This document shows positions 33,481 to 63,904 of a stretch of 64,000 nucleotides of DNA, piece after piece (positions within the stretch are counted from its first letter, which is position 1; each line of letters begins with the position of its first letter). The notes below the pieces were generated by a model that was given only the letters and a program-made list of their open reading frames with translations, was not told the DNA's origin and made no database searches. The translations under genes and the position numbers were made by a program. The stretch is from positions 45,139,563 to 45,203,562 of the forward strand of contig NC_080837.1 of NCBI RefSeq assembly GCF_030435755.1. The letters run 5' to 3'. The stretch is from Ochotona princeps. Its lineage: Eukaryota.

Positions 33481-34894
33481 TTAAAAAAATGATTGGAGCT
33501 GTATTTGTTTGTATAGTTGCTGCTGTTATAAGTTCTATCTGGAGCCATCTCCCTCCACAAAACAACATGGGGCAGCTGTAGCACTTGTCCCTGCCACTCC
33601 TGTTTCTTTGATCTTGAGGATAGAAGATGGGTGTGTTACTAAGTATATGCCTGAACAAAGGAGTCCTTCTCAACAACGAAGGAATGGTAAGAGGAGAGAG
33701 AAGATAATAAGGCAGAAATGGATTATAATCACACTCAGGTTGGTGATGGTTTGATTCCTGATTACAGTAATCCTAGAAGTATTTTTTATCACAAGTTTAG
33801 AAAAAAACTCACAGTTGTAGGTTCTGTTACTTAGGTAAGGAATAGCACTATGCTATGCACTAGGGTAGCCAGTAGCTACTTGTAGATGTTGAGTAGTTAC
33901 AATCTAATAAATATAACTAGGAGACTGAATTTTTACAATTATTTCATCTTATTTAATTTTATTATATTACCTAACCATATAAGAGTGAAGGTTACTTTTT
34001 GGACAAGGTAGTACTTTAGTTGGTGTTTCTTTCTTTTCTTTTTTTTTTCTGTATCTTAGAATGGGGTGGAGGTGGTGGGGAGGTGAGGAGGAAGGGGAAG
34101 AAGAGAGGTTGGGGGGAGGCAGGTAGAAGTGAGAGACAGATCCTTTTGGAGGGCACCTTGATGCCATTCAAGTGAGCCTGCAAGGTGTGGAGGGCGGGGA
34201 TTGGGAAGGATTGAGGGCAAGCCCCATGGGATTGGTGTCTGAGACTGTCACAGGTGATTGCCTAAGAATGATTGGTAAGCGGGTGGAGTTGGGAAAGGGG
34301 CTGGGAGATTGGGGGTGGGATTCTCAGGTGAAATGCCGGGTTACTTCTGATTGGTGGTGGATGACTGGACTGGCAAGAATTTTCTCAGCTATGAGGAAGA
34401 GGAAATGGCACCGGGTCCAGGGTGGGATATTCTAATAACTCCTTACATTCCTTCCTTTTGTTATACATAAAGGAAAAGGGGCATTGTCTCTATGGTTTCT
34501 TCAAGCTGAGTTTACTAATGGCAATGGTTGCAGCCTGGTGGGAGGAATGAGAGATGGAGGGACACTTCTAGACCTGTAAAGAAACTGGTTAATGGTTTGA
34601 TTAAAAAAAAAAAAATTTACATCTGAGTGGATGACACAGGAATGGAGCGAGGGGTTATTCAAAGTCCTTTTGAAAAGCTGGCTTCAGTTCTCTTTTTCTC
34701 TTACCCAGGCCTTCTTGTGCTTTGGTCATTGATTCTTCATTACTCCTGAATGATCAACGTAGACAAGGTAGCCTCACCAGGAACCAGAGACCCTGACTGC
34801 CTATCATCCTATCTGACTCCTCACATTTCCAAGCAGAGGAATGAACCCTAGCTGCAATTTTGGTTAGGTGGATCTGCACAAACAAGAGAGAAGG

Positions 34895-35112
34895 GGGCCC
34901 AGAGCGGTGGCCTAGCAGCTTAAGTCCTCACCTTGAACACGCTGGGATCCCATATGGGTGCTTCTTCTAATCTCAATTCCCATCTGGCTCTCTGCTTGTG
35001 CCCTGGGAAAGCAGTTGAGGATGGCCCAAAGCCTTGGGACCCTGCACCCACGTGGGATACCCAGAAGATCTGGGCTCCTGGCTTGGGATCGACGCAGCAC
35101 CAGCTGGTGCTA
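34895..35112 (+). mobile_element. SINE 5' fragment in arm A; the full-length counterpart in arm B is at 63350-63665
   Basis: The head sequence matches, and it is truncated at ..ccagctggtgctagg. Confidence 0.7.
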
Positions 35113-36014
35113 GGTGAATTCATAGTTTGAGATAACCTTTTGAACATTAGATTAGGCTACATTCCTTCCAATAACAAAATATGTTTGCGAAGTTGGTTTT
35201 AGGAGATGCTCCTGATATGGAAACAGTAAGTAAGTGGTTGCAAAGTCAAGTCTCAAGGTTTGTTAAATTGTACAAAGCCAAGCAATACTTGCAATAAGTA
35301 AGTACTTGCAAAGCCATAAGTACTTGCAATTTTCTTTAGAATGAATTAAAAAAAAAAATTCTAGCTTCCATGTGTTTCTTTCCCACATGATAAGTAAGCT
35401 TTTGGGAGCAAATGGCCTAAAAACAAGACTGTGAAGTATTTCTCTTGATCTAGAGGTGCTGTGAGACATTGTTGGGATACTAAGTGCAATGTGACCTGGG
35501 AACCTGGGCAGTCTGGACTGGAGTATTGAGAACAGATCAAAGCAGTCTTAGAGGAATAGAATGTGGAAATTTGGTGTGAGATGATCTCAAGGGAGATGAT
35601 GGACATTTCTTGGGCCATTCATGGATTGGGCCACCAAGTATCTGTTCACAACACTGCAGAAGCATACTTGTTCATAAAACACCCATTAAGGAAAGTAAGA
35701 TACGTAAAAATGATTTACTAATGACAGGTGTAGGACAGGGCCCCAGATAGTACTTGATGTCCCCTGGAGTGCCATCCTTGATAGACCATACCTAAAAATG
35801 TGGCCTGAGGAGGTCTGCTACACATAGGGAAGGGAAGTGGGGAGAAAGAAATTAGGAAAGGATGACTTGTGTGTAACAAGAAAGATGTTGTCGGTTCTGT
35901 TACACAAAGAGGCAACTACAGAGAGGGACAGCACACTCTCTACTATTTTTTTTTTTTTTTGTCAATAGCCAAAGTTTATTAGTGGCATCATGCTTTTATA
36001 GAATGAGGGTCATG

Positions 36015-36338
36015 GGCCTGGCAGTGAAAGTCCTGGCCTTGAGCATGCTGGGATCCCATATGGGCACCAGTTCTAATCCCGGCTGCCCCCCTTCTCATCC
36101 AGCTCCCTGCTTGTGGCCTGGGAAAGCAGTCGAGGATGGCCCAAAGCCTTGGGACCCTGCACCCACATGGGAGACCTGGAGGAAGTTCCTGGCTCCTGGC
36201 TTTGGATCGGCGCAGCTGCTGCCATTGTGATCACCTGGGGAGTGAATCATCAGACAGAAGATCTTTCTGTTTCTCCTCCTCTCTGTATATCTGACTTTCC
36301 AATGAAAATAATTAAATCCTTAAAAAAAAATATGAGTT
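36015..36338 (+). mobile_element. SINE in arm A (counterpart at 61375-61655 in arm B, partly diverged)
   Basis: The copy resembles the SINE consensus. Confidence 0.75.
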
Positions 36339-36496
36339 CCACATAGGATAAAGGAGGAGGTATGGAGAATCTTACATATTTCCCACAAGCCTGTCTACAG
36401 AACCCATCAATTGTTTCTACACCCTTGTCTGAAAATATTTGTTTTGTATATCCAATCCATTGTTGCCACTCATAAGATATTCGATCAATTGTTTTC

Positions 36497-36647
36497 TTTT
36501 TTTTTTTTAATTTTTATTTTTATTACAAAGTCAGATACACTGAGAGGAGGAGAGACAGAGAGGAAGTGGAGCTGCCGGGATTAGAACCAGCGGCCATATG
36601 GGATCAAGGCAAGGACCTTAGCCACTAGGCCACGCCGCCAAGCACGA
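36497..36647 (-). mobile_element. Internally deleted SINE with a 15-bp TSD (cgatcaattgttttc), specific to arm A
   Basis: The TSD is seen at both flanks, and the element is absent from the mirrored arm B position. Confidence 0.75.
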
Positions 36648-38594
36648 TCAATTGTTTTCATACAAATGATATCCTATCAAGTGTCCTTCTACAAATCTTT
36701 ATTTTGTAAATTAGGCCTGAGGAATGTGTTTATGGAGAATGTGACCTTGGAAGGTGTATCACCCTGGCCGAGGTGTGGTCTGGTAAACTCCTGTCTTTGC
36801 TTGTCATCTACATGTACATGTCTTTGGTAGAATGCTTGTTTGTTGGTCAGCCCTGAGAAAGTTCACAGAAATAAGTGCATGGATTTCAAATTTTCTTACA
36901 CCAAAATAAGCTTATGTTTCATGTTTCCCATATATTGACGACTCCCCACAAACTGCTGGAGAGACACTGCAGTAGATTGAACCCAGCTTGTTTTCCTATT
37001 GTAGAAATATTGCATCCTTTTGTTTTGAAGCCACTTACTGCAGAGAGTCCACTAAAATGAATTGTTTAAATTTGTAATAATTTAGAAATAATCCTGTTCC
37101 AATCCTGCCTCTGTGTAAACGGAATCAGATTTGGGGTATTTAAAAATAACACCTTAATAGCTGGACTTTATACTTGGTATATGTTTACAAGGAAAGAATC
37201 TTGATTGAATTTGAACTGTAATACTGCATCAAGGTCGAGGAAGCCACCAGGGGGGAGGGGCGTGGGGGGGATTCCCAGAGCCTATGAAACTGTAACATAA
37301 TGCAAAATAATTAATAATAATAATAAATAAAAAAAAAACCAACACCTTCAGTAAGGAATCAAATACATGAGCCATTTTTTACTTATGACCCAATCGTTGA
37401 AAAGAATGCCTTCAAAGGTTCAAAACTGCATGGTCTCATTAGTGAAGTGAAACTTCAGTTTTAGACCACTCTCTTGTTAGTTTTGCTAAAATCATGGAAT
37501 GTATAAAGACAGTAATAAAATTACTACGTGCCAGAATAATCCATTTGTTTGACATTGGTCTCAGTTCTTTACATTCCTTTTCCCCCCCGTACCAATGATG
37601 TTTCTGCTGTCGTCCCTGTCACTAACAGTTCTGGTGTATAGTTGATGTCCCATAAATATTTGTTCAAGGAAGGGGAGACACCAGCTTGGAGAACAGTGTG
37701 ATTGGGCTATGAGTAAAATGGCAAGCAGCAACCTAGAGTTTCAGGAGAAAGAACAGGCGGACAGCTCCAATGACGAAGCTTTGGGCCATTGATTTGTCAT
37801 TTAACATGAGGTGGGTTAAATTTGTAAAACTAGGGAGAAAAATAAAAATAACTGAATTTTTACTGATAATTTATGTAGTTGTGTTAGAAGCATTTTTCAT
37901 CTTGGGGCAGGATTTTCTCTAGTTATCTGAATGGCATATATCCAGTCCAAAGGAAATTAAAGGATCTTTCCCATCTTTCCGTGCTCTGGCATCTCATCCT
38001 TTCGTGTCTGGGATCCAGAAATTCTTGCCCTAGAACTTTTCTTCTCCCCATCCGGACTGGACGTGTATCTTCTCTCAATCTCCCACAAACTGCAAGTCTT
38101 CCCTTGTCCAGGAAGCCAGACACCCACTCACTTCATTTTTTTTTTTCTTATTTATATGCTGAGTCTACGTACTGTTTCCCTACTCCCCAGTAACACCCTG
38201 CCTCCTGATCTGCCCTGACTGCCAAGGGAGGTTGAAAGGGAAGGTTTGTGACATAAAAAAGAGTAAGTATATGACCCACTTCATTGTATTCCGCCGTTGC
38301 GTTCGCTCTCCGCGGTTTGAAACTTGTTCTTTTCACGTGGCTTAGGGATTTACCTTAGAGAGCTGGGAGCCGGGTGGCAGGTTGAACCGCACATCTTGCG
38401 GCTTCCAGGCCTCCTTGCTGCAAAAGCCAGACCGCGAAGACAAAGTGGGTACAGGGATAAGATGCTGGATGCCACCCCATAACAACCGGAGCGGGTAGAG
38501 AGGGACCAGAGCTGGGAAAAAGGTTTGTGTCCCCATCTGGGGCGATTGAATCAGGTTCTGTCACCATGACGACAAGGGCCGGCCCGCGTGCTCC

Positions 38595-38650
38595 CCTGCC
38601 ATTGGCTGCGCACTCCATGGACCGGAGATATAAGCCTGCGCTAGGGAACA
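38595..38650 (+). promoter_or_regulatory. PNP: PNP copy A core promoter with an inverted CCAAT box and TATA box
   Basis: ccattggct lies at about 38599-38607 and TATAAG at about 38629-38634. Both are about 115-150 nt upstream of the ATG at 38750, inside a CpG-rich block (38300-39100). Human PNP is known to have a TATA plus inverted CCAAT promoter. Confidence 0.6.
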
Positions 38651-38749
38651 GTGAACTAACTGTGCTGCCTAGAGCCAGCTACCTTCTCCTTCTCTCGTCG
38701 GAGCGGATCGCAGCTAGGCAAAGGCTCTTGGAGAGGACCACGCCGGACC

Positions 38750-38760
38750 ATGGAGAACGG
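38750..38760 (+). CDS. PNP: PNP copy A exon 1 coding part (MEN + GG)
   Basis: The sequence is ggaccATGGAGAACGG|gtgagc, and the phase joins exon 2 (GG+A gives Gly). Confidence 0.8.
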
Positions 38761-40549
38761 GTGAGCTGGGCACCAGGCCCAGGGAACCCCAGAGGACCCT
38801 GCGGAGGGGAAATGGCTGTCACCAAGCCTGGGAAACTTGGCTGGCTGGGCCCTGAGGGGGTCGGGAGAGGGCGCAAATGCCCTGGAGACGCAGAGAGGCC
38901 CGGCATGGAACCTAGGTGTCCTGGGCGAGGCGACAGAGCAGTGAGGCAGCCCGCGCTGGCAGGGGCGCGCGCGGGAATGGAGCTAGGGTGGCGCCACCGC
39001 GGCGGGAAGGGGACAGGTTGGTGTGGTGCGGGCTACTCGTAAAAGGGACCGTTGTGTGGGAGCTCGCGTGCCTGGATTAGGGTGCGAGTGGAGACAGAGG
39101 CATAGGACCTACTTCGAAGCAGGGCAGACGGCCCTCCAGCCCATGCTAAGAACTCAAAGCCACAAGGTGTTTGTGCCTGAAGCCCCAGTTCCCCGTTTAG
39201 AGAAAAGCGTGCCCGCCCTCTCTCACAGGTTGCTTCTGGTTGGTTTCCCTCCGAATTGGAGATCAGATCAGTCAGTGGGGAATCATGGCTCCCAGGGAAG
39301 ACAGATATTATTCCTGAGCTGAGCGAGACCTTTCTCCATCCTCACCCTGTTCAGGGAAGCCACCCTCCCCATGTCTGTCCTGTGACTTCCAGTCAAACTC
39401 ACCAGCATTAGGGATCACAGAACTTTTGGCTGCCCAGGGATCAGGGAATCCCTGGGGGACTGAGGGCCAGGAAGGAAACCCCTGAGTTGGGACTATCACA
39501 CCAGGTGGCAGCTGCTCCAACATTTCCCTTTCCTTTGCACCTCTTGGAGATACCATTTGATTCATTTTTCACCAGCCTCATTGCCTCTTTTTCATTTTGT
39601 GGCACTAGCTCTCACCATCACCCCCAGCTCTCCTCTTGCCCACCACCTCGTGAACTGGGGAGTAAGTCTGGCTTCCTCTGCTCTGCTCTGCTCTCAAAGG
39701 GAAAGAATGTCTCTGTTGGCTTTGCCAGCTTTGTAGCCCTGCCAAACCTCAGTTCCACTGCAGGCAATCATTGGTGTTTCAGAGGGGAGTGAGAACTGGA
39801 CTTGGGACTGTAAGAAGCATTCTGAGTTACTCTTGCTGGCGAAGTAGAAGCAGCGGTTCTGGGTCAGTGTGCGCGGCCAGATCCTTTAAGGGCATGGAGC
39901 CTTGGTGAAGAGAAGGAAGGAGAAATTGTCAGGTGTGCAAGACAGTGTCGCAGGGGCTGGATAGCAAGTTTTAAATTCGCTTGCAAACTGAGTCTGTCCA
40001 GTAATAGAAGGGCAAATAACATGGCCTTACTTTATACCGGAGGCAGATGAAAGCACAGATTATTCACTGAAAAAGACAACCTCAGCAAGAATCTAGATTG
40101 AGTTCTGCTTCCCTCCCCTCTCCACCCAAATTCCCAAACATGACTTTGGGATCAGTTATGTGAGCCATTTTACAGAAACGGGAATTCTCTGGCCTCTCTC
40201 CAGCAGTGTTCCAGCCGCAAGGGTGGGCCTGTGTCTTTCACAAGCTTCTTCTGAGATTGCATGCTGTCAGGCTGGCTTAGCTTGTGGCGACCGCGTTGTG
40301 GCTTAGGTATACTTTTGTATGCCTTTATATGCACCCTTGCAAGTCTCATGACAGGGATGTTTGTGGGTCTGCCTATCCCAGAAAGAACCCAGGGAACCAT
40401 GAACGACACCCAGACCTTCTAAGAGGTTGCTAGTGCTTTTCTCCTCAAAACATCGATCCTTTAGTATTTGAGGAAAGAGTTGGAGAGTGAGGCAACAAGA
40501 GAAAATTGGATTTCCTCCTGCCCCCAAGGTAACTTTAATTCCATTTTAA

Positions 40550-41195
40550 ATGAGATGTAGACAGAGGCCTTCCATCTGCTGATTCACAGCTCAGATGGCT
40601 GCTGCACGTCAGGCTGGGCCAAGCCCAAAACAGTTAAGAGCTCCATGCAGGTCTTGCACCGGGTACAGGGGCCCAAGTGCGAACTGCTGTTCCAGGCATG
40701 TTAGCAGGAGACTGGATTGAAAGTGGAGCAACTGGGACTCAAACCCATACCCCCAGGTGAGATGCGGGTGTCACAGGCAACAGCTTAAACCCAGAGTCCC
40801 AGGCTGGCTCCAGGCCTGTCATTACATTTTGTATGTCCCTAGGGGATAGATAAAATCCTGAGCAAAATTGTCTTAGGTTTGTTGCTGCCCACAGTAAAGT
40901 CTTAATCCCACCTTTTAAAATGAGATGTATTGATTTGAAAGGCAGAGAGCGAAGAGAAGCTCCCATCCACTGGCCAGATCCAAGCCAGGAGTCAAGAATC
41001 CATCCTGGCCTTCTGCATAGGTGGCAGGGGCTCAAGGACCTGGGCCATCTTTTCCTCTGCTTTCCCAGACGTGTTAGCAGGAGGCTGGAGCAGAGGTGGA
41101 GCAGCCAGAACTAGACCTTGACATTTGAATGCTGGTGTCACAAGCAAGCGGTGGCTTAACAAGGGTGACAATGCTCTCCGTGGCACCAGCACCCG
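40550..41195 (-). mobile_element. Two tandem SINE-like elements in PNP intron 1 (about 40550-40820 and 40905-41195), mirrored in arm B at about 58596-59241
   Basis: The conserved core appears twice, and the six-frame ORFs are mirrored in arm B. Confidence 0.55.
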
Positions 41196-41584
41196 CCCTC
41201 TGGCTCTGCCACACTGGTCCCACTTTGAGTACTCTCCCTAAGCTTTTCAGACTCTGGTTGAACCTTTAACCTTGCTGACTGGATGAAGTCATTTCAGAAG
41301 GGAGATTAAACCTGCTATGGGTAACAGGACAGAGGCGGGGCTGTTGGTAGAGACATGGGCTTTATAAACTTAGCCTCTCCAGTGGGGGTAATTTCATGTC
41401 TGGGGTCCCCGGGCTGAATTCAGAAAGGGCTGGTGGAATGGGTGGGTGAGTATGCTGTGGCTTCTCCCTCGGAGCCAGTTTCTCTGTCCCCTGCTGTCTC
41501 GGTGTACCTGCCAGCCTGTTGGTCATTTGTTGGACACCTGTGGCTGGGAGCAGCACTCACTTTCGTTTTCTCTTCTTGTTCTAG

Positions 41585-41754
41585 ATTCACATATGAAGAT
41601 TATCAGAACACTGCAGAATGGCTGCTGTCTCACACCACGCACCGCCCTCAAGTGGCCGTGATCTGTGGTTCTGGGCTAGGAGGTTTGACTGATAAATTAA
41701 CGGAGGCCCAGGTCTTTAACTACAGTGAGATACCCAATTTTCCCCAAAGTACAG
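41585..41754 (+). CDS. PNP: PNP copy A exon 2 ([56 protein letters not shown])
   Basis: Within ORF 41433..41858, with a ttctag|A acceptor and an ACA G|GTACGA donor. Confidence 0.9.
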
Positions 41755-41864
41755 GTACGACCAGAGGAATGCTGGGGATGGCACTGAGGGAAATATGTAG
41801 ATACATATGTCTGCATGCATATATATGTATGTATGTATGTATATATAAGTATAAATGAAATTTT

Positions 41865-41995
41865 ATTTTTATGTGAAAGGCAGATACAGAGAGAGGAGAG
41901 ATCCCATCTGTTGGTTCACTCCCTAAATGCCTGGCACTCCAACCAGCACTCACAGGATGCCCTGGCACCGCCCCCTGGGGCCGGGGCGGGGGATT
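41865..41995 (-). mobile_element. SINE fragment in PNP intron 2, preceded by (TATG/TACA)n at 41817-41850; mirrored at about 57790-57975
   Basis: The fragment resembles the SINE tail. Confidence 0.5.
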
Positions 41996-43304
41996 TGTAT
42001 TGATGGCATGCTGTGGAATCCAATCAAGGAGGTCAAAGCTTATTATCCTATGACCCAGTATTTGCTCAAGATAAATGTAAGAGAAGAAAAATGTCCACTC
42101 TCAACCAGGATGACTCGGGAGTGAAGCTTTTCCGGCAGAAATGTGGTAATAGGACAAGTATTTGTTAGTGCAACTAGGGTGGCATCATTCCATCTTTCCT
42201 AAGCTTTGTTGACTCAGAGCTCCTCCAGACCCCAGGATAAGCCACTTACCTACTTCCCAGCCACATGCCTCCTCCCCTACTGTCAGCACGTTCAGACGGT
42301 ACTGTCGATAGTACTGTGAGGACAAGCAGTATTTGGACTCCGGGACAAAGTCACACCTTCCCTGGCTGGGTTAAGACACACCTTTGTGCCCAGCAGCAGA
42401 TGAGAAGGTGGCATAGGGTGCTCTGCAGGCATAGCCACAGCTCGCTGCACGGGTGGAAAGGCCTGACTAGCTGACCCGTTGGAAAGGGAAAGCGGCAGAT
42501 AGCCCCTTATCTACAGGGGAGCCCTGAGAGCTCGGGAAAGCACCCAATGGCCACACTCGGCCAGGTGAAACTGGCAAGGAAGGGCCAAGGGTACTTTATT
42601 TGGTTGACTTACTGATTTTGTCAATAACTTGCTTCCCTGGGCTTATTCACAAATGTTTAAGATTCCTATCTTCTGTCTCTGCAGAATTCATTCTTTGAAC
42701 AAAGATTGTTAAACTCTTTGGACAAGATTGGAAGACTAGAATAGAGAGATGAGAATGGGGGTTGGAGAAGGAAATATTACAGTGACAAGGAAGGCTTTTT
42801 TTGTGAATTGTTTTAAGATAGTAGTGACATTGGCTGCATCTGCCACTTCCACTCCCAGTGAGCTGGGCACTGCATTGAGTGATAAGTGGGCTCCCTTGCT
42901 GGGTTGGGGAGCTGTATAGTAGAGTGAAGGAGATAATTTTGGTATTTTTAAAGAGGTCTATCATTATCACAATCACTTTTCTCTGCTCTCTTTTTGTTTG
43001 TTTGTTTGTTTTACAATGTAGCTTTCTCACTCTTTTGCAACTTCTTTAGCAAGCCTTTCCTTTTCCTTTGTATGTTCACATGGATCAGTTTTACCTCTAA
43101 TCGCAGGTTATGTTTGCATAATTATGACTAATGCCCGTCTACCACAGCAGACAAAACTTTCTGAAAGCAGAGATAGTATCTTTTGCTGAATTATGCCCTC
43201 CTCTGTTGAGCAGCAAGTGGCCCACAGCAGGTGCTCAATGGCTGCGTGTTGTATGAAAGCCTAAGCCTAATCATTCTCCCCACTTCCCCCTTTTTGGTAT
43301 GCAG

Positions 43305-43408
43305 TGCCAGGTCATGCTGGTCAGCTGGTGTTTGGCTTCCTGAATGGCACATCGTGTGTGATGATGAAAGGCAGGTTCCATTTGTATGAAGGATACCCAC
43401 TCTGGAAG
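43305..43408 (+). CDS. PNP: PNP copy A exon 3 ([35 protein letters not shown])
   Basis: Within ORF 43304..43534, with a tatgcag|TG acceptor and an AAG|GTAAGC donor. Confidence 0.9.
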
Positions 43409-43520
43409 GTAAGCCAGGAGCGAAAAGGAAGAGAAGTGTCTGTTGAGTTATATTGTATTCCTCGCTTCTTTGGGCCCTTCTACAGAGGCAGCATGGGAGA
43501 GTTCAGAACACCTTTTCTGA

Positions 43521-44095
<575 letters not shown>

Positions 44096-44350
44096 TGACT
44101 TCAAAATTACTGCAATATGTTTATTTCTATATAAAACATGGCATCGGTACTATTTTATAAGCAATGCAGAAATAAGCCCTGTAAAGCCCCACTTATTTCA
44201 AGTCATACACACCAAATAAGACCGGTGCTAATTTAGTGTTGAGTGTCCTTTTTTGCATTTGGGGATTGAACATTTGCAGTGAAGTTACAGTGGGAGCCGA
44301 GGCTGAGGACGAGGATGCTGACGGTCACTTTCCTTTCTTGTGCCCACCAG

Positions 44351-44568
44351 GCATGAGCACCGTGCCAGAAGTGATCGTTGCCCGGCACTGCGGACTTCGA
44401 GTCTTTGGCTTCTCACTCATCACTAACAAAGTCATCTTTGATTATGAAAAGCTGGAAAAGGCCAACCACGAGGAAGTGTTGGAAGCCGGGAAACAAGCTG
44501 CCCAGAAACTGGAACAGTTTGTCTCCATTCTCGTGTCCAGCCTTCCACTCCCTGGCAATGTCAGCTGA
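44351..44568 (+). CDS. PNP: PNP copy A exon 6 ([72 protein letters not shown] stop)
   Basis: Within ORF 44236..44568, with a ccaccag|GC acceptor. The total CDS is 870 nt, giving 289 aa as in human PNP. Confidence 0.9.
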
Positions 44569-50652: not shown

Positions 50653-50687
50653 GTGCAAATAACAGAAGATAACAAGAACATGAAATG

Positions 50688-52392: not shown

Positions 52393-53055
52393 AAATTGGA
52401 AAATCAGATATACAGAGAGGAGGAGAGACAGAGAAAGATTTTTCTGCCTGTTGATCCACTCCCTAAGTGGCCGCAACAGCCAGAGCTGAGCTGATCCAAA
52501 CCCAGGATTCCAGAACCTCCTCCAGGTCTCCAACATGTGGGTGCAGGGTCCCAAGGCTTTGGGCCATCTTCTACTGCTTTCACAGGCCACAAGCAGGGAG
52601 TTGGATGGAAAGTGAGGCTAGGCCTAGCGCAATAGCGTAGTGGTTAAAGTCCTTGCCTTGCATGGGCCCAAGATCCAATGTGGGCACCGGCTCTAAAACC
52701 AGCGGCTCTACTTCCCATCCAGCTCCCTGCTTGTGGCCTGGGAAAGCAGTCGAGGATGGCCCAAAGCTTTGGGATCCTGCACCCACGTGGGGAGACCTGG
52801 ACACTCTTGGCTTCAGATTGGCTCAGCTCCAGCCGTTGCGGCCGCTTAGGGAGTGAATCATCGGACAGAAGATCTTCCTCTCTGTCTCTTCTCCTCTCTG
52901 TGTATCAGACTTTCCAATAAAAATAAATACATTATAAAAAAAAAAAGAAAAAAAGAGAATGAGGCTGCCAGGACACAACTGGAGCCCATAAGGGATCCTG
53001 GTGCTTACTAGGCAAAGACTTTAGCCACTAGGCTACTGCACTGGGCCCCTTCATC
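52392..53055 (-). mobile_element. Reverse-orientation SINE interrupted by a nested forward SINE (52622-52960)
   Basis: The outer element's tail half lies at 52392-52622 and its head half at 52965-53055. The inner SINE is complete with an A tail. Confidence 0.7.
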
Positions 53056-53099
53056 TGTTTCTGACTCTGCATGTCAAATAAATCAATCATTCATAAACA

Positions 53100-53150
53100 G
53101 ATAGATAGATAGAAAGATAGATAGATGGATAGATAGTGTTGTGGCATCAT
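53100..53150. repeat. (GATA)n microsatellite
   Basis: The stretch reads agatagatagatagaaagatagatagatggatagatag. Confidence 0.9.
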
Positions 53151-53364
53151 TTTGATCATTCCAGCCAGGAGGCAGATCAGAGATTGGAATGGAAAGCAAT
53201 TTGAACTACTGCTGTCTTTTACAGATCCCTTTGTGTGACAATGACTTAGGAACATGCCAAGAACTCTTCATCACTCTGTGCTTTGGTTTATTGTGATGTG
53301 GAACCCTCATCCTCTTTTCCATCCTACAAAGCTAAGCTCAAAGGTTTAACAAAAAATTTTTCCC

Positions 53365-53660
53365 TGGAGCCAGAACTTGTGCAGCACGTTAGGCTGCCGC
53401 TTGCAGCACCGGCATCCATCCCACATGGACACTGGTTTGAGTCCTGGCTGCTCCATTTCTGATCCAACTCCCTGCTAATGTGCCTGGAAAAGCCACAGAG
53501 GATGGCCCACGTGACTGCGCCCCTGCACCCACTTGAAACCTGGATCAAATTCTGGCTGCTGTCCTTCATTTGGGAACTGAACCAGCAAATGAAAAATCTC
53601 TTTTTCTATGCTTTTCCTTCTGTTACACTGCCTTTCAAATAAACAAAGAAAATAAATTAC
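53365..53660 (+). mobile_element. SINE (divergent)
   Basis: The copy resembles the SINE consensus. Confidence 0.55.
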
Positions 53661-53811
53661 ACCTAATAGCTGCACTGTACTTCTCTCTGAATGAACTCAT
53701 GGACAAACAAATGTGAGAGATTGCTTGAAGGCGAGTGATGGATTTCCTGGTGAATAGAAGTACAGCAAACTGAAGACAGGGATACAGCTGAAGCCTTTGC
53801 ATTTGTTCCAT

Positions 53812-54112
53812 GAAGGGGCTCAGTTGGTGAAATCCTCCCACTGCAAGCGCTGGGATCTCACATGGCCTCTGGTTCATATCCTGGCTGCTCCACTTCCCAT
53901 CCAGCTTCCTGCTTATGGCCTGGGAAAGCAGCAGAGAATGGTCCAAAGCCTTAGGACCCTGCACCCACGTGGGAGACCTGGAAGAAGCTCTTAGCTCCTG
54001 GCTTTGGATGGGCTAAGCTACAGGTGTTGTGGCCACTTGGAGAATGAACAGTGGGTGGAAGAGCTATCTCTCTGTCTCTCCTCTCAGAAAACCTGACTTT
54101 CCAATGAAAAAG
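53812..54112 (+). mobile_element. SINE
   Basis: The copy resembles the SINE consensus. Confidence 0.7.
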
Positions 54113-54774
54113 AATCCTTTTCATTGAGTTCAGCTCCTGTCCAGTATACCTCTACATATCATATTACCAGTAAGTGAAAGGTTAGTTACTGCTAGAGGCT
54201 CATCAAACATACAGGCCTGGGAGGGTAATGTGGTTTTTCAAACCTGCCAGCCATTGAATGCACATTGAGAAGCAAAGATAAGGGAGTGCCACTTCATAGC
54301 TAAGATCTAGCCATGCAAAAGCAAACAGACAAATTGAGAAAGGCAGGCAGGGCAGGGGTACTCGCCGCATTGTTAGTATGCAGCAGAGTGTATATGGCTG
54401 CTGAAGTCACAAACAGTAGGGGAGAAGAACAGGGCAGAGAGAACAAATACAACCAGAGATGAAACAAGGAATTGGCAGCTAATCATAGCACAGTAGCCGA
54501 GATCAGTGAATGCATCCAAATATTCATAAGTGAGGAGTGAAACCAGAAGGCCTAGCACTGGCCTGAAGGAAGTGGTCACCACAGAGCGCAAGGGAGTCCT
54601 CCTCCTCCTCCTCACCTCCGGCCACCTTGCTGCCCTTCGTGGCTCCTCCCTCCCTTGCGGTAGTGCTCTCAGTTCTCAGCTCCTGGACTCTGAAGCTGAG
54701 TCACAGTCTTGGCCTGAGCCCCAGGCTCACCCCAAATTGCAACAAAAACACACAAGATTTCCCCCCTTTTTTTC

Positions 54775-54780
54775 TTTATT
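54775..54780 (-). terminator. PNP: PNP copy B polyadenylation signal (mirror of 45006-45011)
   Basis: TTTATT on the plus strand is at the mirrored position. Confidence 0.45.
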
Positions 54781-55217
54781 GTCAAAACATTTCAGTATTA
54801 AATAAAGTTTCTATGAGGTATTGGTCTAGTCCTTGTTTGGTCTCCAGAGTGTTAGGTGGGGCAGAACTGAACCCCCAAGAACGTGAGAAGCATCGTCTCA
54901 AACAGCTAGCAACAGCTACTGTGCAAAGTCCGAAGGCCCAGGTCAAATCCCGAGCATGTGCACGCGTGTGTCGTAGGGCACCAGCTCCAGTTCGTATGGT
55001 AGACGAGGGACTAGAAGCAAACTTGTTTGAGAAGACCACTGGGCAAGAGAACCGGGCACTGGAGTGTTTAGTGGAACAAAGTGGAGAAGGTAAAGGATGA
55101 GGATCTCCCTCTTCCTGCTAGTAAGGACACACAGGCACATGACTCCAGCTAGGGGGCCCAAGTAGACAGCAGCTACTCAGATCCTAACACGGAGAGGCCT
55201 GACCACCCCAGGGCTGG

Positions 55218-55435
55218 TCAGCTGACATTGCCAGGGAGTGGAAGGCTGGACACGAGAATGGAGACAAACTGTTCCAGTTTCTGGGCAGCTTGTTTCCCGG
55301 CTTCCAACACTTCCTCGTGGTTGGCCTTTTCCAGCTTTTCATAATCAAAGATGACTTTGTTAGTGATGAGTGAGAAGCCAAAGACTCGAAGTCCGCAGTG
55401 CCGGGCAACGATCACTTCTGGCACGGTGCTCATGC
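55218..55435 (-). CDS. PNP: PNP copy B exon 6
   Basis: Minus ORF 55218..55550. The exon translation is identical to copy A. Confidence 0.85.
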
Positions 55436-55690
55436 CTGGTGGGCACAAGAAAGGAAAGTGACCGTCAGCATCCTCGTCCTCAGCCTCGGCTTCCACTGTA
55501 ACTTCACTGCAAATGTTCAATCCCCAAATGCAAAAAAGGACACTCAACACTAAATTAGCACCGGTCTTATTTGGTGTGTATGACTTGAAATAAGTGGGGC
55601 TTTACAGGGCTTATTTCTGCATTGCTTATAAAATAGTACCGATGCCATGTTTTATATAGAAATAAACATATTGCAGTAATTTTGAAGTCA

Positions 55691-56265
<575 letters not shown>

Positions 56266-56377
56266 TCAGAAAAGGTGTTCTGAACTCTCCCATGCTGCCT
56301 CTGTAGAAGGGCCCAAAGAAGCGAGGAATACAATATAACTCAACAGACACTTCTCTTCCTTTTTGCTCCTGGCTTAC

Positions 56378-56481
56378 CTTCCAGAGTGGGTATCCTTCAT
56401 ACAAATGGAACCTGCCTTTCATCATCACACACGATGTGCCATTCAGGAAGCCAAACACCAGCTGACCAGCATGACCTGGCA
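56378..56481 (-). CDS. PNP: PNP copy B exon 3
   Basis: Minus ORF 56252..56482. The exon part is identical to copy A, with an R/Q difference in the intronic read-through. Confidence 0.85.
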
Positions 56482-58036
56482 CTGCATACCAAAAAGGGGG
56501 AAGTGGGGAGAATGATTAGGCTTAGGCTTTCATACAACACGCAGCCATTGAGCACCTGCTGTGGGCCACTTGCTGCTCAACAGAGGCGGGCATAATTCAG
56601 CAAAAGATACTATCTCTGCTTTCAGAAAGTTTTGTCTGCTGTGGTAGACGGGCATTAGTCATGATTATGCAAACATAACCTGCGATTAGAGGTAAAACTG
56701 ATCCATGTGAACATACAAAGGAAAAGGAAAGGCTTGCTAAAGAAGTTGCAAAAGAGTGAGAAAGCTACATTGTAAAACAAACAAACAAACAAAAAGAGAG
56801 CAGAGAAAAGTGATTGTGATAATGATAGACCTCTTTAAAAATACCAAAATTATCTCCTTCACTCTACTATACAGCTCCCCAACCCAGCAAGGGAGCCCAC
56901 TTATCACTCAATGCAGTGCCCAGCTCACTGGGAGTGGAAGTGGCAGATGCAGCCAATGTCACTACTATCTTAAAACAATTTACAAAAAAAGCCTTCCTTG
57001 TCACTGTAATATTTCCTTCTCCAACCCCCATTCTCATCTCTCTATTCTAGTCTTCCAATCTTGTCCAAAGAGTTTAACAATCTTTGTTCAAAGAATGAAT
57101 TCTGCAGAGACAGAAGATAGGAATCTTAAACATTTGTGAATAAGCCCAGGGAAGCAAGTTATTGACAAAATCAGTAAGTCAACCAAATAAAGTACCCTTG
57201 GCCCTTCCTTGCCAGTTTCACCTGGCTGAGTGTGGCCATTGGGTGCTTTCCCGAGCTCTCAGGGCTCCCCTGTAGATAAGGGGCTATCTGCCGCTTTCCC
57301 TTTCCAACGGGTCAGCTAGTCAGGCCTTTCCACCCGTGCAGCGAGCTGTGGCTATGTCTGCAGAGCACCCTATGCCACCTTCTCATCTGCTGCTGGGCAC
57401 AAAGGTGTGTCTTAACCCAGCCAGGGAAGGTGTGACTTTGTCCCGGAGTCCAAATACTGCTTGTCCTCACAGTACTATCGACAGTACCGTCTGAACGTGC
57501 TGACAGTAGGGGAGGAGGCATGTGGCTGGGAAGTAGGTAAGTGGCTTATCCTGGGGTCTGGAGGAGCTCTGAGTCAGCAAAGCTTAGGAAAGATGGAATG
57601 ATGCCACCCTAGTTGCACTAACACATACTTGTCCTATTACCACATTTCTGCCGGAAAAGCTTCACTCCCGAGTCATCCTGGTTGAGAGTGGACATTTTTC
57701 TTCTCTTACATTTATCTTGAGCAAATACTGGGTCATAGGATAATAAGCTTTGACCTCCTTGATTGGATTCCACAGCATGCCATCAATACAAATCCCCCCC
57801 CCCGCCCCGGCCCCAGGGGGCGGTGCCAGCGCATCCTGTGAGTGCTGGTTGGAGTGCCAGGCATTTAGGGAGTGAACCAACAGATGGGATCTCTCCTCTC
57901 TCTGTATCTGCCTTTCACATAAAAATAAAATTTCATTTATAATTATATATACATACATACATACATATATATGCATGCAGACATATGTATCTACATATTT
58001 CCCTCAGTGCCATCCCCAGCATTCCTCTGGTCGTAC

Positions 58037-58206
58037 CTGTACTTTGGGGAAAATTGGGTATCTCACTGTAGTTAAAGACCTGGGCCTCCGTTAATTTATC
58101 AGTCAAACCTCCTAGCCCAGAACCACAGATCACGGCCACTTGAGGGCGGTGCGTGGTGTGAGACAGCAGCCATTCTGCAGTGTTCTGATAATCTTCATAT
58201 GTGAAT
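58037..58206 (-). CDS. PNP: PNP copy B exon 2
   Basis: Minus ORF 57933..58358. The exon part is identical to copy A, with a ctag|ATTCAC acceptor at 58206. Confidence 0.85.
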
Positions 58207-61024
58207 CTAGAACAAGAAGAGAAAACGAAAGTGAGTGCTGCTCCCAGCCACAGGTGTCCAACAAATGACCAACAGGCTGGCAGGTACACCGAGACAGCAG
58301 GGGACAGAGAAACTGGCTCCGAGGGAGAAGCCACAGCATACTCACCCACCCATTCCACCAGCCCTTTCTGAATTCAGCCCGGGGACCCCAGACATGAAAT
58401 TACCCCCACTGGAGAGGCTAAGTTTATAAAGCCCATGTCTCTACCAACAGCCCCGCCTCTGTCCTGTTACCCATAGCAGGTTTAATCTCCCTTCTGAAAT
58501 GACTTCATCCAGTCAGCAAGGTCAAAGGTTCAACCAGAGTCTGAAAAGCTTAGGGAGAGTACTCAAAGTGGGACCAGTGTGGCAGAGCCAGAGGGCGGGT
58601 GCTGGTGCCACGGAGAGCATTGTCACCCTTGTTAAGCCACCGCTTGCTTGTGACACCAGCATTCAAATGTCAAGGTCTAGTTCTGGCTGCTCCACCTCTG
58701 CTCCAGCCTCCTGCTAACACGTCTGGGAAAGCAGAGGAAAAGATGGCCCAGGTCTTTGAGCCCCTGCCACCTATGCAGAAGGCCAGGATGGATTCTTGAC
58801 TCCTGGCTTGGATCTGGCCAGTGGATGGGAGCTTCTCTTCGCTCTCTGCCTTTCAAATCAATACATCTCATTTTAAAAGGTGGGATTAAGACTTTACTGT
58901 GGGCAGCAACAAACCTAAGACAATTTTGCTCAGGATTTTATTTATCCCCTAGGGACATACAAAATGTAATGACAGGCCTGGAGCCAGCCTGGGACTCTGG
59001 GTTTAAGCTGTTGCCTGTGACACCCGCATCTCACCTGGGGGTATGGGTTTGAGTCCCAGTTGCTCCACTTTCAATCCAGTCTCCTGCTAACATGCCTGGA
59101 ACAGCAGTTCGCACTTGGGCCCCTGTACCCGGTGCAAGACCTGCATGGAGCTCTTAACTGTTTTGGGCTTGGCCCAGCCTGACGTGCAGCAGCCATTTGA
59201 GCTGTGAATCAGCAGATGGAAGGCCTCTGTCTACATCTCATTTAAAATGGAATTAAAGTTACCTTGGGGGCAGGAGGAAATCCAATTTTCTCTTGTTGCC
59301 TCACTCTCCAACTCTTTCCTCAAATACTAAAGGATCGATGTTTTGAGGAGAAAAGCACTAGCAACCTCTTAGAAGGTCTGGGTGTCGTTCATGGTTCCCT
59401 GGGTTCTTTCTGGGATAGGCAGACCCACAAACATCCCTGTCATGAGACTTGCAAGGGTGCATATAAAGGCATACAAAAGTATACCTAAGCCACAACGCGG
59501 TCGCCACAAGCTAAGCCAGCCTGACAGCATGCAATCTCAGAAGAAGCTTGTGAAAGACACAGGCCCACCCTTGCGGCTGGAACACTGCTGGAGAGAGGCC
59601 AGAGAATTCCCATTTCTGTAAAATGGCTCACATAACTGATCCCAAAGTCATGTTTGGGAATTTGGGTGGAGAGGGGAGGGAAGCAGAACTCAATCTAGAT
59701 TCTTGCTGAGGTTGTCTTTTTCAGTGAATAATCTGTGCTTTCATCTGCCTCCGGTATAAAGTAAGGCCATGTTATTTGCCCTTCTATTACTGGACAGACT
59801 CAGTTTGCAAGCGAATTTAAAACTTGCTATCCAGCCCCTGCGACACTGTCTTGCACACCTGACAATTTCTCCTTCCTTCTCTTCACCAAGGCTCCATGCC
59901 CTTGAAGGATCTGGCCGCGCACACTGACCCAGAACCGCTGCTTCTACTTCGCCAGCAAGAGTAACTCAGAATGCTTCTTACAGTCCCAAGTCCAGTTCTC
60001 ACTCCCCTCTGAAACACCAATGATTGCCTGCAGTGGAACTGAGGTTTGGCAGGGCTACAAAGCTGGCAAAGCCAACAGAGACATTCTTTCCCTTTGAGAG
60101 CAGAGCAGAGGAAGCCAGACTTACTCCCCAGTTCACGAGGTGGTGGGCAAGAGGAGAGCTGGGGGTGATGGTGAGAGCTAGTGCCACAAAATGAAAAAGA
60201 GGCAATGAGGCTGGTGAAAAATGAATCAAATGGTATCTCCAAGAGGTGCAAAGGAAAGGGAAATGTTGGAGCAGCTGCCACCTGGTGTGATAGTCCCAAC
60301 TCAGGGTTTCCTTCCTGGCCCTCAGTCCCCCAGGGATTCCCTGATCCCTGGGCAGCCGAAAGTTCTGTGATCCCTAATGCTGGTGAGCTTGACTGGAAGT
60401 CACAGGACAGACATGGGGAGAGTGGCTTCCCTGAACAGGGTGAGGATGGAGAAAGGTCTCGCTCAGCTCAGGAATAATATCTGTCTTCCCTGGGAGCCAT
60501 GATTCCCCACTGACTGATCTGATCTCCAATTCGGAGGGAAACCAACCAGAAGCAACCTGTGAGAGAGGGCGGGCACGCTTTTCTCTAAACGGGGAACTGG
60601 GGCTTCAGGCACAAACACCTTGTGGCTTTGAGTTCTTAGCATGGGCTGGAGGGCCGTCTGCCCTGCTTCGAAGTAGGTCCTATGCCTCTGTCTCCACTCG
60701 CACCCTAATCCAGGCACGCGAGCTCCCACACAACGGTCCCTTTTACGAGTAGCCCGCACCACACCAACCTGTCCCCTTCCCGCCGCGGTGGCGCCACCCT
60801 AGCTCCATTCCCGCGCGCGCCCCTGCCAGCGCGGGCTGCCTCACTGCTCTGTCGCCTCGCCCAGGACACCTAGGTTCCATGCCGGGCCTCTCTGCGTCTC
60901 CAGGGCATTTGCGCCCTCTCCCGACCCCCTCAGGGCCCAGCCAGCCAAGTTTCCCAGGCTTGGTGACAGCCATTTCCCCTCCGCAGGGTCCTCTGGGGTT
61001 CCCTGGGCCTGGTGCCCAGCTCAC

Positions 61025-61035
61025 CCGTTCTCCAT
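61025..61035 (-). CDS. PNP: PNP copy B exon 1 coding part (ATGGAGAACGG + GTGAGC donor intact)
   Basis: The reverse complement of tcacccgttctccatggtcc gives ggaccATGGAGAACGGgtga. Confidence 0.75.
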
Positions 61036-61374
61036 GGTCCGGCGTGGTCCTCTCCAAGAGCCTTTGCCTAGCTGCGATCCGCTCCGACGAGAGAAGGAGG
61101 AGCAGGACGAGAGAAGGAGAAGGTGGCTGACTCTAGGCAGCACAATTAGTTCACTGTTACCAAGTGTCGACTTACATCTCTGGCCCAGGATATGATTTGT
61201 ACGAAAACAACTGATTGGCTATCATTTGAGTGGGAACAATTGATTGGATATATAAAACAAAGATATTTTCTGACAAGGGTGTATTAACAATTGATGGGTT
61301 TTGTAGACAGGTTTATGGGAACAATCTAAGCTCCTCAGTACCTCCTCCTTTATCCTATATGAGCCTCATTCTTG

Positions 61375-61655
61375 TTTTAAAGATTTATTTATAAATCTTC
61401 TGTCTGATGATTCACTCCCCAAGTGCCCGCCACAGCTGGAGCTGCACCTATCCGAAGCCAGGATCAGGAGCTTCCTCCAGGTCTCCCATGTGGGTGCAGG
61501 GTCCCAAGGCTTTGGGCCATCCTCAACTGCTTTCCCAGGCCACAAGCAGGGAGCTGGATGGGAAGGCGGGCAGTCGGGTTTAAAACTGATGTCCATATGG
61601 GATACGGGTATATTCAATGCCAGGACTTTAGCCGCCAGGCACATGACCCTCATTC
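61375..61655 (-). mobile_element. SINE in arm B (counterpart of 36015-36338)
   Basis: The copy resembles the SINE consensus. Confidence 0.7.
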
Positions 61656-62989
61656 TATAAAAGCCTGATGCCACTAATAAATTTTGGCTATTAACCAAAA
61701 ACAAACAAACAAACAAACATAGAGAGTGTGTTGTCGCTCTCTGTGGTTGCCTCTTTGTGTAACAGAACCGACAACATCTTTCTCATTTCAATGTGTAGCT
61801 TGTTACACACAAGTCATCCTTTCCTAATCTCTTTCTCTCCACTTCCTTTCCCTATGTGTAGCAGACCTCCTCAGGCCACATTTTTAGGTATGGTCTATCA
61901 AGGATGGCACTCCAGGGGACATCAAGTACTATCTGGAGCCCTGTCCTACACCTGTCCTTAGTAAATCATTTTTACGTATCTTACTTTACGTAAAGGGTCT
62001 TTTATGAACAAGTATGTTTCTGCAGTGTTGTGAACAGATACTTGGTGGCCCAACCCATGAATGGCCCAAGAAATGTCCATCATCTCCCTTGAGATCATCT
62101 CACACCAAATTTCCACATTCTATTCGTCTAAGACTGCTTTGATCTGTTCTCAATACTCCAGTCCAGACTGCCCAGGTTCCCAGGTCACATTGCACTTAGT
62201 ATCCCAACAATGTCTCACAGCACCTCTAGGTCAAGAGAAATACTTCACAGTTTTGTTTTTAGGCCATTTGCTCCCAAAAGCTTACTTATCATGTGGGAAA
62301 GAAACACATGGAAGCTAGAATTTTTTTTAATTCATTCTAAAGAAAATTGCAAGTACTTATGGGATGTATGCACCTGCTTGGCTTTGTACAATTTAACAAA
62401 CCTTGAGACTTGACTTTGCAATCCTCATCTACTGTTTCATGTTGTTTCCCATCTAGTATTCACTTTTTATCAGAAGCATCTCCTCAAACCAGCTTTGCAA
62501 ACATATTTTGTTATTGGAAGGAATGTAGCCTAATCTAATGTTCAAAAAGTTATCTCAAACTAAGAATTCACACAGCATACAAGAACTCTAAAATATTGTC
62601 ATCTTTCCTTTTAGCTTAAAAAATATTGCATGGTATCTGTATGAGTTTATACTCTGGCGCAGAGTTTAGGAACTATGGCCTCACTTTTTCTATTACCACT
62701 TCATCTCTGAACCTATGAAGTGTAAATTAGTGGCCCATAATCCAACTGTCTGTATGAATTCCATCCCTGCCCCCTTACTTGTCAGCTGTATGATCTTAGG
62801 TAAGTAAAACTATTCCTGCGTCTCAGTTTTCTTAACTGTAAAATTGTGATAATAATAGCACTTACTATTACACAAAGATTATATGAAACAGCTATTCAGT
62901 GTTTAGACAAAGCCTGGTACTATAATAAACACACAGGAAATGATGATTATTGATATAATTATTCTCTTCTCTCTTTTCTAAAGATTTTT

Positions 62990-63292
62990 ATTTCTTTTTA
63001 TTGGAAAGTCAGATTCACAGAGAGAAGGATCTTCCAACTGCTGGTCCACTTCCTAAGTGGCTGCAACAGCTGGTGCATAGCTGATCCAAACCCAGGAGAA
63101 TGGAGTCTTTTCCAGATCTCCCATGTGGCTTCTGGGTCCCAAGACTTTTGACCATCCTCCACTGCTTTCCCAGGCCACAAGCAGGGAGCAGGATGGGAAG
63201 TGGAGTAGGTGGCATGTGAACTGCAGCCCACATGGGATCCTGGCACTTGCATGGTGAGGACTTTAGCCATCAGGCTGCTGTGCCAGGCCCTC
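62990..63292 (-). mobile_element. SINE in an arm B-specific segment, followed by (CT)n at 63325-63345
   Basis: The copy resembles the SINE consensus. Confidence 0.7.
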
Positions 63293-63349
63293 TTGTCTTC
63301 TTTTTCTCTTCTCTTTTCTTCCCTTCTCTCTCTCTCTCTCTCTCTTATT

Positions 63350-63665
63350 CTTGTTTAAGATTTATTTATTTTTATTGGAAAGTCAGATATACAGAGGAGA
63401 GACAGAGAGGAAGATCTTCTGTCCGATGATTTACTCCCCAAGTGACCGCCACAGCCGGAGCTGTGCTGATCCCAAGGCAGGAGCCAGGAACTTCCCTCCA
63501 GGTCTCCCACATGGGTACAGGGTCCCAAGACTTTGGGCCGTCCTTGACTGCTTTCCCAGGGCACAAGCAGAGAGCCGGATGGGAAGTGGGGCAGCCGGGA
63601 TTAGAACATTACCCATATGGGATCCCAGCATGTTCAAGGTGAGGACTTGAGCAGCTAAACCACAG
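63350..63665 (-). mobile_element. Full-length SINE in arm B corresponding to the truncated copy A fragment at 34895-35112
   Basis: The head-region sequence is shared with the arm A fragment. Confidence 0.75.
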
Positions 63666-63904
63666 CTCTGGGCCCCCTTCTCTCTCGTTTGTGCAGATCC
63701 ACCTAACCAAAATTGCAGCTAGGGTTCATTCCTCTGTTTGGAAATGTAAGGAGTCAGATAGGATGATAGGCAGTTAGGGTCTCTGGTTCCTGGTGAAGCT
63801 ACCTTGTCTATGTTGATCATTCAGGAGTAATGAAGAATCAATGACCAAAGCACAAGAAGGCCTGGGTAAGAGAAAAAGAGAACTGAAGCCAGCTTTTCAA
63901 AATG

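Follow-up and report, generated by a model that had tools for sequence, protein, structure and literature searches.

A PNP-bearing palindrome on a pika autosome: an inverted gene duplication whose arms probably evolve in concert by gene conversion

The American pika, Ochotona princeps, carries two complete copies of PNP, the gene for an enzyme of purine salvage, arranged tail to tail on either side of a unique spacer. The DNA that we analysed ('the window') is a stretch of 64,000 nucleotides from that species (NCBI RefSeq assembly GCF_030435755.1, contig NC_080837.1, forward-strand positions 45,139,563 to 45,203,562). We consider it very probable that the locus is an autosomal, gene-bearing palindrome, in which an inverted duplication of PNP older than the split between O. 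princeps and a second pika, O. curzoniae, has been homogenised by gene conversion between its two arms, and in which the spacer has probably been flipped by a crossover between them.

Results

The whole PNP transcription unit is duplicated in inverted orientation

The inverted repeat was mapped in the window by self-BLAST, extended with a more sensitive search and then aligned globally. Its parts, and the two genes that they contain, are as follows.

34661-45253, plus strand: arm A, 10,593 bp, with ~4 kb of upstream sequence, the complete gene PNP-A and 685 bp past its stop codon
38686-45253, plus strand: homogenised core of arm A, 6,568 bp, with most of the 5' untranslated region (UTR), all exons and introns, the 3' UTR and 247 bp past the poly(A) signal
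45254-54532, no strand: spacer, 9,279 bp, unique and not palindromic
54533-63909, minus strand: arm B, 9,377 bp, an inverted copy of arm A with the complete gene PNP-B
54533-61099, minus strand: homogenised core of arm B, partner of 38686-45253
38750-44568, plus strand: PNP-A coding region from ATG to stop, six exons, 289 amino acids, Pfam PF01048
38750-38760, 41585-41754, 43305-43408, 43536-43711, 43804-43994 and 44351-44568, plus strand: PNP-A exons, from tblastn with human PNP
45006-45011, plus strand: AATAAA poly(A) signal of PNP-A; in O. curzoniae, the corresponding site is where mRNA contigs stop
55218-61035, minus strand: PNP-B coding region, six exons, all splice sites intact
61025-61035, 58037-58206, 56378-56481, 56075-56250, 55792-55982 and 55218-55435, minus strand: PNP-B exons, from tblastn with human PNP
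54775-54780, minus strand: AATAAA poly(A) signal of PNP-B

The main inverted match in the self-BLAST pairs 38683-45253 with 61102-54533 over 6.57 kb, at 99.44% identity with gap columns included, and paired positions in the core sum to 99785-99786, with the axis near 49.89 kb. Both self-BLAST and the global alignment agree with an earlier note on this DNA, which had described a tail-to-tail inverted duplication of the whole PNP unit around that axis, with a unique, non-palindromic spacer whose bounds we now place as listed above. The same note had let arm B run beyond 63.9 kb; its end lies inside the window, at 63909. The arm-to-arm alignment that the note had proposed finds the two cores to differ by three indels, of 1, 5 and 5 bp, and by 25 substitutions, all of them in introns or UTRs; identity is 99.6% when substitutions alone are counted and 99.44% once gap columns are included, rather than the difference of about 10 positions (99.8%) given earlier.

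The mirrored open reading frames (ORFs) do not owe their similarity to short interspersed elements (SINEs): similarity to interspersed repeats, defined as repeats present elsewhere in the window, is confined to 284 of the 6,568 core bases, and the core homology is therefore one of unique sequence. At 6.57 kb and 99.6% identity the core exceeds the thresholds for a segmental duplication (at least 1 kb of non-repeat sequence at 90% identity or more). The window is gapless and contains no N.

A tblastn search with human PNP recovers two complete exon sets in the window, the exons being 86-92% identical to human PNP except at the start of exon 3. The coding sequences (CDS) of PNP-A and PNP-B are identical at 870 of 870 nucleotides and all GT/AG splice sites are kept. 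The earlier note had called a complete second PNP on the minus strand, with intact ATG, stop, splice sites and poly(A) signal and with six exons translating identically to those of the first, and every part of that call stands, including its exact coordinates for exons 1 and 6 of copy B. The 289-residue product has the features expected of a mammalian PNP, namely a full-length PNP_UDP_1 domain (PF01048, E = 7e-50, residues 27-279) encoded within a six-exon structure; it is 92% identical to rabbit PNP and matches exactly the O. princeps RefSeq proteins XP_004584699.4 and XP_058522119.1. The NCBI annotation has two genes with identical products in O. princeps, and likewise in O. curzoniae. The duplication thus takes in the whole PNP transcription unit. 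Short PNP fragments that fall in the same 90% cluster as the pika copies were considered as well, and come from other mammals, not from pikas.

Arm identity has two levels

The earlier note had treated the arms as mutual reverse complements throughout. That description fits the near-identical core, but in the outer ~4 kb (34661-36496 against 63909-61203) identity varies from 80 to 98% in a mosaic fashion, with interruptions by indels of 2.1 kb and 0.9 kb. Identity falls at once to ~80% upstream of A38685/B61119, 65 bp upstream of the ATG, and the edge is sharp: 12 differences in 38621-38680 are followed by none across the next 678 bp. Further out, 34661-35106 matches 63909-63452 at 89% identity, and 35108-36496 matches 62577-61203 at 84%. 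Neither these two tiers of identity nor the difference between the promoters of the two copies (below) figured in the earlier note, and both are now observed. The outer arms contain the following segments.

35107-36006, plus strand: second, older homogenised outer tract, partner ~62577-61650
36007-36496, plus strand: unconverted outer-arm segment, partner ~61649-61203, including a SINE common to both arms
36497-38617, plus strand: 2.1-kb segment found only in arm A, lost from arm B and from the B-type arm of O. curzoniae
62578-63451, minus strand: 0.9-kb segment found only in arm B and absent from arm A, part ancestral and part SINE

Amid outer arms of 85-90% identity lies a block of ~0.56 kb (35316-35880 against 62360-61800) that is 97.5% identical; it forms part of the second concerted tract and is split from the core by unconverted sequence. 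The SINE at 36015-36339 and 61640-61395 occupies the same position in both arms and is therefore older than the duplication. We considered whether the outer matches of 84-89% identity might be mere collinear SINEs, and rejected this, since 35107-36006 and 36330-36496 consist for the most part of unique sequence that can be aligned base by base, and since this one SINE is in the same place in both arms.

The same palindrome is present in Ochotona curzoniae

A look in other lagomorph assemblies, also proposed in the earlier note, revealed two convergent PNP genes in O. curzoniae, at 41,774,481-41,779,646 (plus strand) and 41,789,917-41,795,723 (minus strand), in an assembly that is independent of that of the window (GCA_017591425.1, contig JAADBW010000589.1). 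We joined the two loci, which are identical across an overlap of 9,730 bp, into a gapless composite of 41,243 bp. Identity between its inverted arms is 98.6% across 4.3 kb, falls to 96.6% in the 1.4 kb that follows and is 89-92% beyond; the inner and outer boundaries of these arms are homologous to those in the window. In what follows, the arm with the B-type outer flank is called OL and that with the A-type outer flank OR; arm B and OL have the junction of the 2.1-kb deletion in common. The gapless state of the locus in both species suggests that both assemblies were built from long reads.

The two O. curzoniae paralogs differ by five synonymous and no non-synonymous changes in the CDS, with two accessions for one protein sequence. 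Four amino acids differ between the species (G4Q, V47A, T76R and Q269H), and each is common to both paralogs.

Compared with its partner copy and with the two copies of the window, the B-type gene of O. curzoniae lacks or has replaced ~630 bp of its first intron (composite 11210-11533 against 29062-30014), which provides an arm-specific marker 4.3 kb from the spacer. The annotated B-type gene is shorter for this reason (5166 against 5807 bp).

Spliced contigs from five O. curzoniae RNA runs in Logan (SRR22936845/853/846/744/855) carry varying mixes of the OL and OR synonymous variants (mRNA positions 160, 163, 703 and 1148), together with private variants. The presence of both OL and OR variants suggests that both copies are transcribed. 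Such mosaic contigs are also compatible with segregating conversion tracts.

The core evolves in concert, and the flanks preserve the age of the duplication

We aligned all four arms (A and B of the window, OL and OR of O. curzoniae). In the core, 369 sites group A with B against OL with OR, and not one site pairs A with OR and B with OL, or A with OL and B with OR. Such an excess of concerted over orthology sites is the pattern of palindrome arms that are kept identical by arm-to-arm conversion, and it bears out one of the alternatives that the earlier note had left standing, an actively homogenised duplication. Another 148 sites are unique to OL and cluster at its ~630-bp deletion or replacement in intron 1.

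The segments beside the core behave otherwise. Nineteen sites in 36007-36496, and 12 in the promoter-proximal 38560-38685, pair A with OR and B with OL. The second outer tract, 35107-36006, again has 69 concerted sites against no orthology sites; there, the distance between paralogs is 5% for O. princeps and 1.5% for O. curzoniae, against 12-13% between the species. Kimura two-parameter (K2P) distances for the core are 0.0038 between paralogs against 0.076 between orthologs, while in the unconverted segment the paralogs (0.167 and 0.199) are further apart than the orthologs (0.138-0.140).

Because the flanks retain orthology at 31 sites and the deletion junction is shared, the duplication predates the split of O. 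princeps and O. curzoniae. Comparable noncoding blocks are only 70-76% identical between pika and hare, and the duplication is therefore younger than the split between pikas and leporids. Judged by these distances, the age of the duplication would exceed that of the split between the two pika subgenera by a factor of about 1.2-1.4. Repeated gene conversion from arm to arm most plausibly accounts for the near-identity of the core.

The history that we propose would begin in an ancestor common to O. princeps and O. curzoniae, within the pika lineage, when a segment of ~10.6 kb (PNP and ~4 kb of upstream sequence) would have been copied in inverted orientation ~9 kb downstream of the original. 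Recurrent non-allelic conversion between the arms would then homogenise 6.57 kb, from the start of the 5' UTR to the inner arm ends, and separately an outer tract of ~0.9 kb, so that both genes of each species would stay identical in protein and evolve in concert. Short segments beside the large indel, the core promoter among them, would escape conversion and keep the true age of the duplication. Where recombination between the inverted arms was resolved as a crossover, the spacer would flip.

The hare locus and the orientation of the spacer

The corresponding locus of the hare Lepus europaeus contains a single PNP, with no large inverted repeat in the ±10 kb around it, and PNP is likely to be single-copy in leporids. 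The upstream flank of the hare gene matches window 28099-29301 and, within the segment found only in arm A, 37394-38078 (hare 8779-9463 and onward); it follows that this 2.1 kb is ancestral sequence that arm B has lost. The segment found only in arm B is also ancestral in part, window 62951-62257 being matched by hare 5951-6659. On the other side of the gene, the downstream flank of the hare crosses the arm boundary into window 54532-54135 and then continues in 52383-50690, on the minus strand, so that the spacer, taken on its minus strand starting at 54532, is the homologue of what follows PNP in the hare. Arm A thus retains the ancestral upstream flank, on the PIP4P1 side, and with it the ancestral upstream adjacency; copy B keeps the ancestral adjacency between PNP and its downstream sequence. 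The spacer has no convincing ORF: those that it contains come from SINEs or are random, and no gene was seen in it.

The spacer lies differently in the two pikas. In the window, arm A, with its ancestral upstream flank, adjoins the spacer end at 45254 and arm B that at 54532; in O. curzoniae, OR, which has the A-type flank, adjoins the end homologous to 54532 and OL that homologous to 45254. Composite positions 11533-17571 align with window 40908-46985, and 24519-31310 with 54292-61102, both in the same sense, whereas the outer flanks of O. curzoniae align with the window in the opposite sense. These alignments run contiguously across both spacer boundaries, and the spacer is therefore inverted with respect to the outer flanks between the two assemblies. 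A flip of the spacer by crossover between the arms would be the simplest explanation of this difference as seen at the assembly level. Among the primate X palindromes that have been compared, the spacer is inverted between species in about half (PMC8327919).

One flip would separate the two species. Its direction is left unpolarised, because, had the duplication arisen by staggered-break inversion, the arrangement in the window would be the primary one, although it is O. curzoniae whose arrangement is collinear with that of the hare except for the inserted inverted copy. The duplication may have arisen by such an inversion, or by insertion of an inverted copy through replication template switching, and either route would need one later flip. 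Inverted duplications made by staggered breaks at inversion breakpoints are known from Anopheles 2Rj (PMC1952172), and others occur in Drosophila. The order in the window, X - inverted D1 - inverted X - D2, is just what an inversion with a single long staggered break should yield as its primary product; O. curzoniae, unlike such a product, is collinear with the hare plus an inserted inverted copy.

The two copies have different promoters

The conversion tract ends ~30-65 bp from the transcription start in both species, and the sequences beyond it differ between the copies.

38601-38605 and 38629-38634, plus strand: PNP-A core promoter motifs, an inverted CCAAT (ATTGG) and TATAAG respectively, putative and read from the sequence
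61171-61222, minus strand: PNP-B promoter-proximal region, with TGTAAG at the TATA position (61176-61171)
61100-61119, minus strand: 20-bp insertion in the PNP-B 5' UTR, in which a CTCCTTCTCTCGTC-like motif is duplicated locally in tandem

Both the inverted CCAAT and the TATAAG of PNP-A are also found in the A-type copy of O. curzoniae. PNP-B lacks the inverted CCAAT of PNP-A and everything upstream of it, and the 2.1-kb deletion has put GCCAATCAG from further upstream in that place. The promoters have been distinct since before the species split, copy B having lost 2.1 kb and gained other CCAAT-containing sequence. The B-type copy of O. curzoniae retains TATAAA at the TATA position. The 20-bp insertion of PNP-B sits exactly at the edge of the homogenised core; it could serve as a copy-specific marker in RNA-seq data, as could the 3' UTR variants at 44607/55179, 44908/54878 and 44978/54808. 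Both copies may be expressed, in which case the dosage of PNP would be roughly doubled.

Alternative explanations

The two cores, at 99.6% identity, fall within the allelic range, as would be expected if an assembly artefact (a haplotig or a mis-join) had turned a single PNP locus into a false inverted duplication. False duplications show differences of allelic level only and lack a counterpart in any independent assembly. The arms, on the contrary, differ outside the core by the 2.1-kb and 0.9-kb indels and in sequence that is 80-90% identical, and the independent assembly of O. curzoniae has this palindrome too, bounded at the same places and with the same 2.1-kb deletion in its B-type arm; moreover, the locus is gapless and RefSeq has two genes in both species. 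We thus hold an artefact, which the earlier note had offered as one of its alternatives, to be highly improbable. The other possibility raised there was a very recent duplication; if it had occurred without gene conversion, possibly independently in each pika, the core divergence of 0.38% and the lack of orthology-type sites in the core would follow. Independent events would, however, require identical inner and outer breakpoints and an identical 2.1-kb deletion junction in both species, and the structure in O. curzoniae stands alongside outer-arm and promoter segments that hold 31 sites of the A/OR versus B/OL type and 15-20% divergence between paralogs. The identity profile, too, is a step function (12 differences in 60 bp, then none in 678 bp), and we think a recent origin very unlikely. 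Strong purifying selection on both copies, in place of conversion, would agree with the coding sequences, which show no difference in 870 bp where ~3.3 were expected (P = 0.03). But some 87% of the core is intron or flanking sequence, as similar between the copies as the exons are, the same introns differ by 7.6% between species, and selection is unable to account for 369 derived states common to both paralogs; as the cause of the core identity, it has next to no probability in our estimate.

A narrower alternative accepts the palindrome and the conversion and ascribes the opposite spacer orientations to mis-orientation in one of the assemblies. A spacer between arms of 4-6.6 kb that are 98.6-99.6% identical is a classic spot for an arbitrary choice by the assembler, and the core has no shared paralog-specific variants by which the arms could be phased. 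On the other hand, both loci run through arms and spacer uninterrupted by any N, and the frequency of flips in the primate X palindromes cited above (about half; PMC8327919) makes a real flip the expected behaviour. We regard mis-orientation as a serious possibility, if an unlikely one.

Several observations weigh against a homogenised palindrome with two expressed genes and a flipped spacer. Copy number and spacer orientation in both O. princeps and O. curzoniae rest on the level of assemblies. The hare locus stops ~3 kb before the place expected for an inverted copy, and the grounds for a single copy in leporids are one RefSeq accession in each species and arguments from divergence. GC-biased substitution, which is frequent in palindromes that undergo conversion, is only a trend, the ratio of weak-to-strong to strong-to-weak changes being 91:57 in the arms and 57:53 in the spacer with the hare as outgroup, which is not significant (Fisher p = 0.13). 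In PNP-B, the TATA position is mutated and the upstream region deleted, and the mosaic RNA contigs of O. curzoniae may be chimeric assemblies or allelic variants. The homogenised palindrome nevertheless remains, in our judgement, very probable as a whole.

Neighbouring genes and repeats

Upstream of PNP-A the window contains exons of four further genes.

3683-4384, minus strand: exons of a KLHL33-like BTB protein
13018-15871, minus strand: exons of OSGEP (TsaD domain)
17555-18427, plus strand: exons of APEX1 (Exo_endo_phos)
21218-21571, minus strand: exons of PIP4P1/TMEM55B (Tmemb_55A)

The order KLHL33-OSGEP-APEX1-PIP4P1-PNP is that of the genes at human 14q11.2; the palindrome locus is therefore autosomal, and syntenic with that human region.

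A lagomorph SINE of ~320 bp is present in many copies in the window, which are 75-92% identical to one another, and one of them adjoins the outer end of arm B at 63907.

1359-2035, 5445-5793, 6066-6401, 14292-14623, 26363-26701 and 32017-32600: lagomorph SINE copies
36015-36339, 46987-47310, 52635-52954, 62974-63674 and 63907-64000: further lagomorph SINE copies

An Rfam scan of the whole window gave no family above threshold.

Discussion

To our knowledge, nearly all work on palindromes has concerned those of sex chromosomes. Jackson et al. (2021; PMC8327919) define them by inverted arms of more than 8 kb with more than 99% identity around a spacer of less than 500 kb. The pika locus has inverted arms around a spacer of 9,279 bp, well inside that limit, but only 6.57 kb of its 9.4-10.6 kb arms exceeds 99% identity, the remaining ~4 kb being 80-98% identical. 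The shortfall from 8 kb concerns a threshold of size, not a difference in mechanism, and the same authors accepted one palindrome with arms of 6.5 kb as an orthologue (PMC8327919).

In the palindromes of the primate X and Y, arm identity above 99% is kept by gene conversion, and spacers are inverted by non-allelic homologous recombination (NAHR; PMC8327919, PMC3723533, PMC8981503). Like human Y P6 and the 26 palindromes of the human X, the pika locus consists of inverted arms with intact genes around a unique spacer; its structure is conserved across species and its arms evolve in concert. Its spacer has opposite orientations in the two pika assemblies, and in primates inversion of the spacer between species is frequent. 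Unlike them it is autosomal, and it carries a housekeeping purine-salvage enzyme rather than a testis-biased family. It also differs in that its outer arms and promoters have escaped homogenisation and in that GC-biased conversion is not significant. The FLNA-EMD repeats of human Xq28 (X palindrome P24) are likewise inverted repeats of ~10 kb that evolve in concert around a unique segment found in both orientations among species and individuals (PMC8327919). There, it is the spacer that contains the genes of interest, the repeats being mostly non-genic, whereas in the pikas the repeats are the genes and no gene was seen in the spacer.

Duplication of PNP seems to be recurrent in mammals. The mouse has Pnp and Pnp2, and the list of homologs contains additional 'PNP-like' genes annotated on the same chromosome in, among others, Thomomys bottae, Choloepus didactylus, Orycteropus afer and Monodelphis. 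The paralogs in that list are distinct, diverged proteins, ~79-88% identical to the query, in contrast to the pika copies, which are identical within species. Our literature searches returned no described PNP duplication in pikas or rabbits and no relevant report on Pnp2. It is conceivable, but in our opinion rather improbable, that the pika arrangement is selectively maintained, with conversion keeping the two proteins identical (a matter of dosage) while the promoters are insulated and differently regulated, and perhaps with a flippable spacer that is polymorphic and a link to cold, hypoxia or high metabolism.

The concerted evolution of the core has consequences for how these genes are read. 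Gene-family or dN/dS (ratio of non-synonymous to synonymous substitution rates) pipelines would take pika PNP for a very young duplicate, orthology calls between the copies across species are meaningless within the core, and short-read variant calls in its 6.6 kb are confounded by paralogous variants. The pika PNP palindrome points to no new mechanism and adds a further case of gene-bearing palindromes: a small, fully sequenced, autosomal one, with two tiers of identity, an origin that can be dated and an apparent flip of its spacer. Autosomal cases of this kind help to part what is intrinsic to inverted repeats, namely conversion and inversion, from the biology of sex chromosomes.

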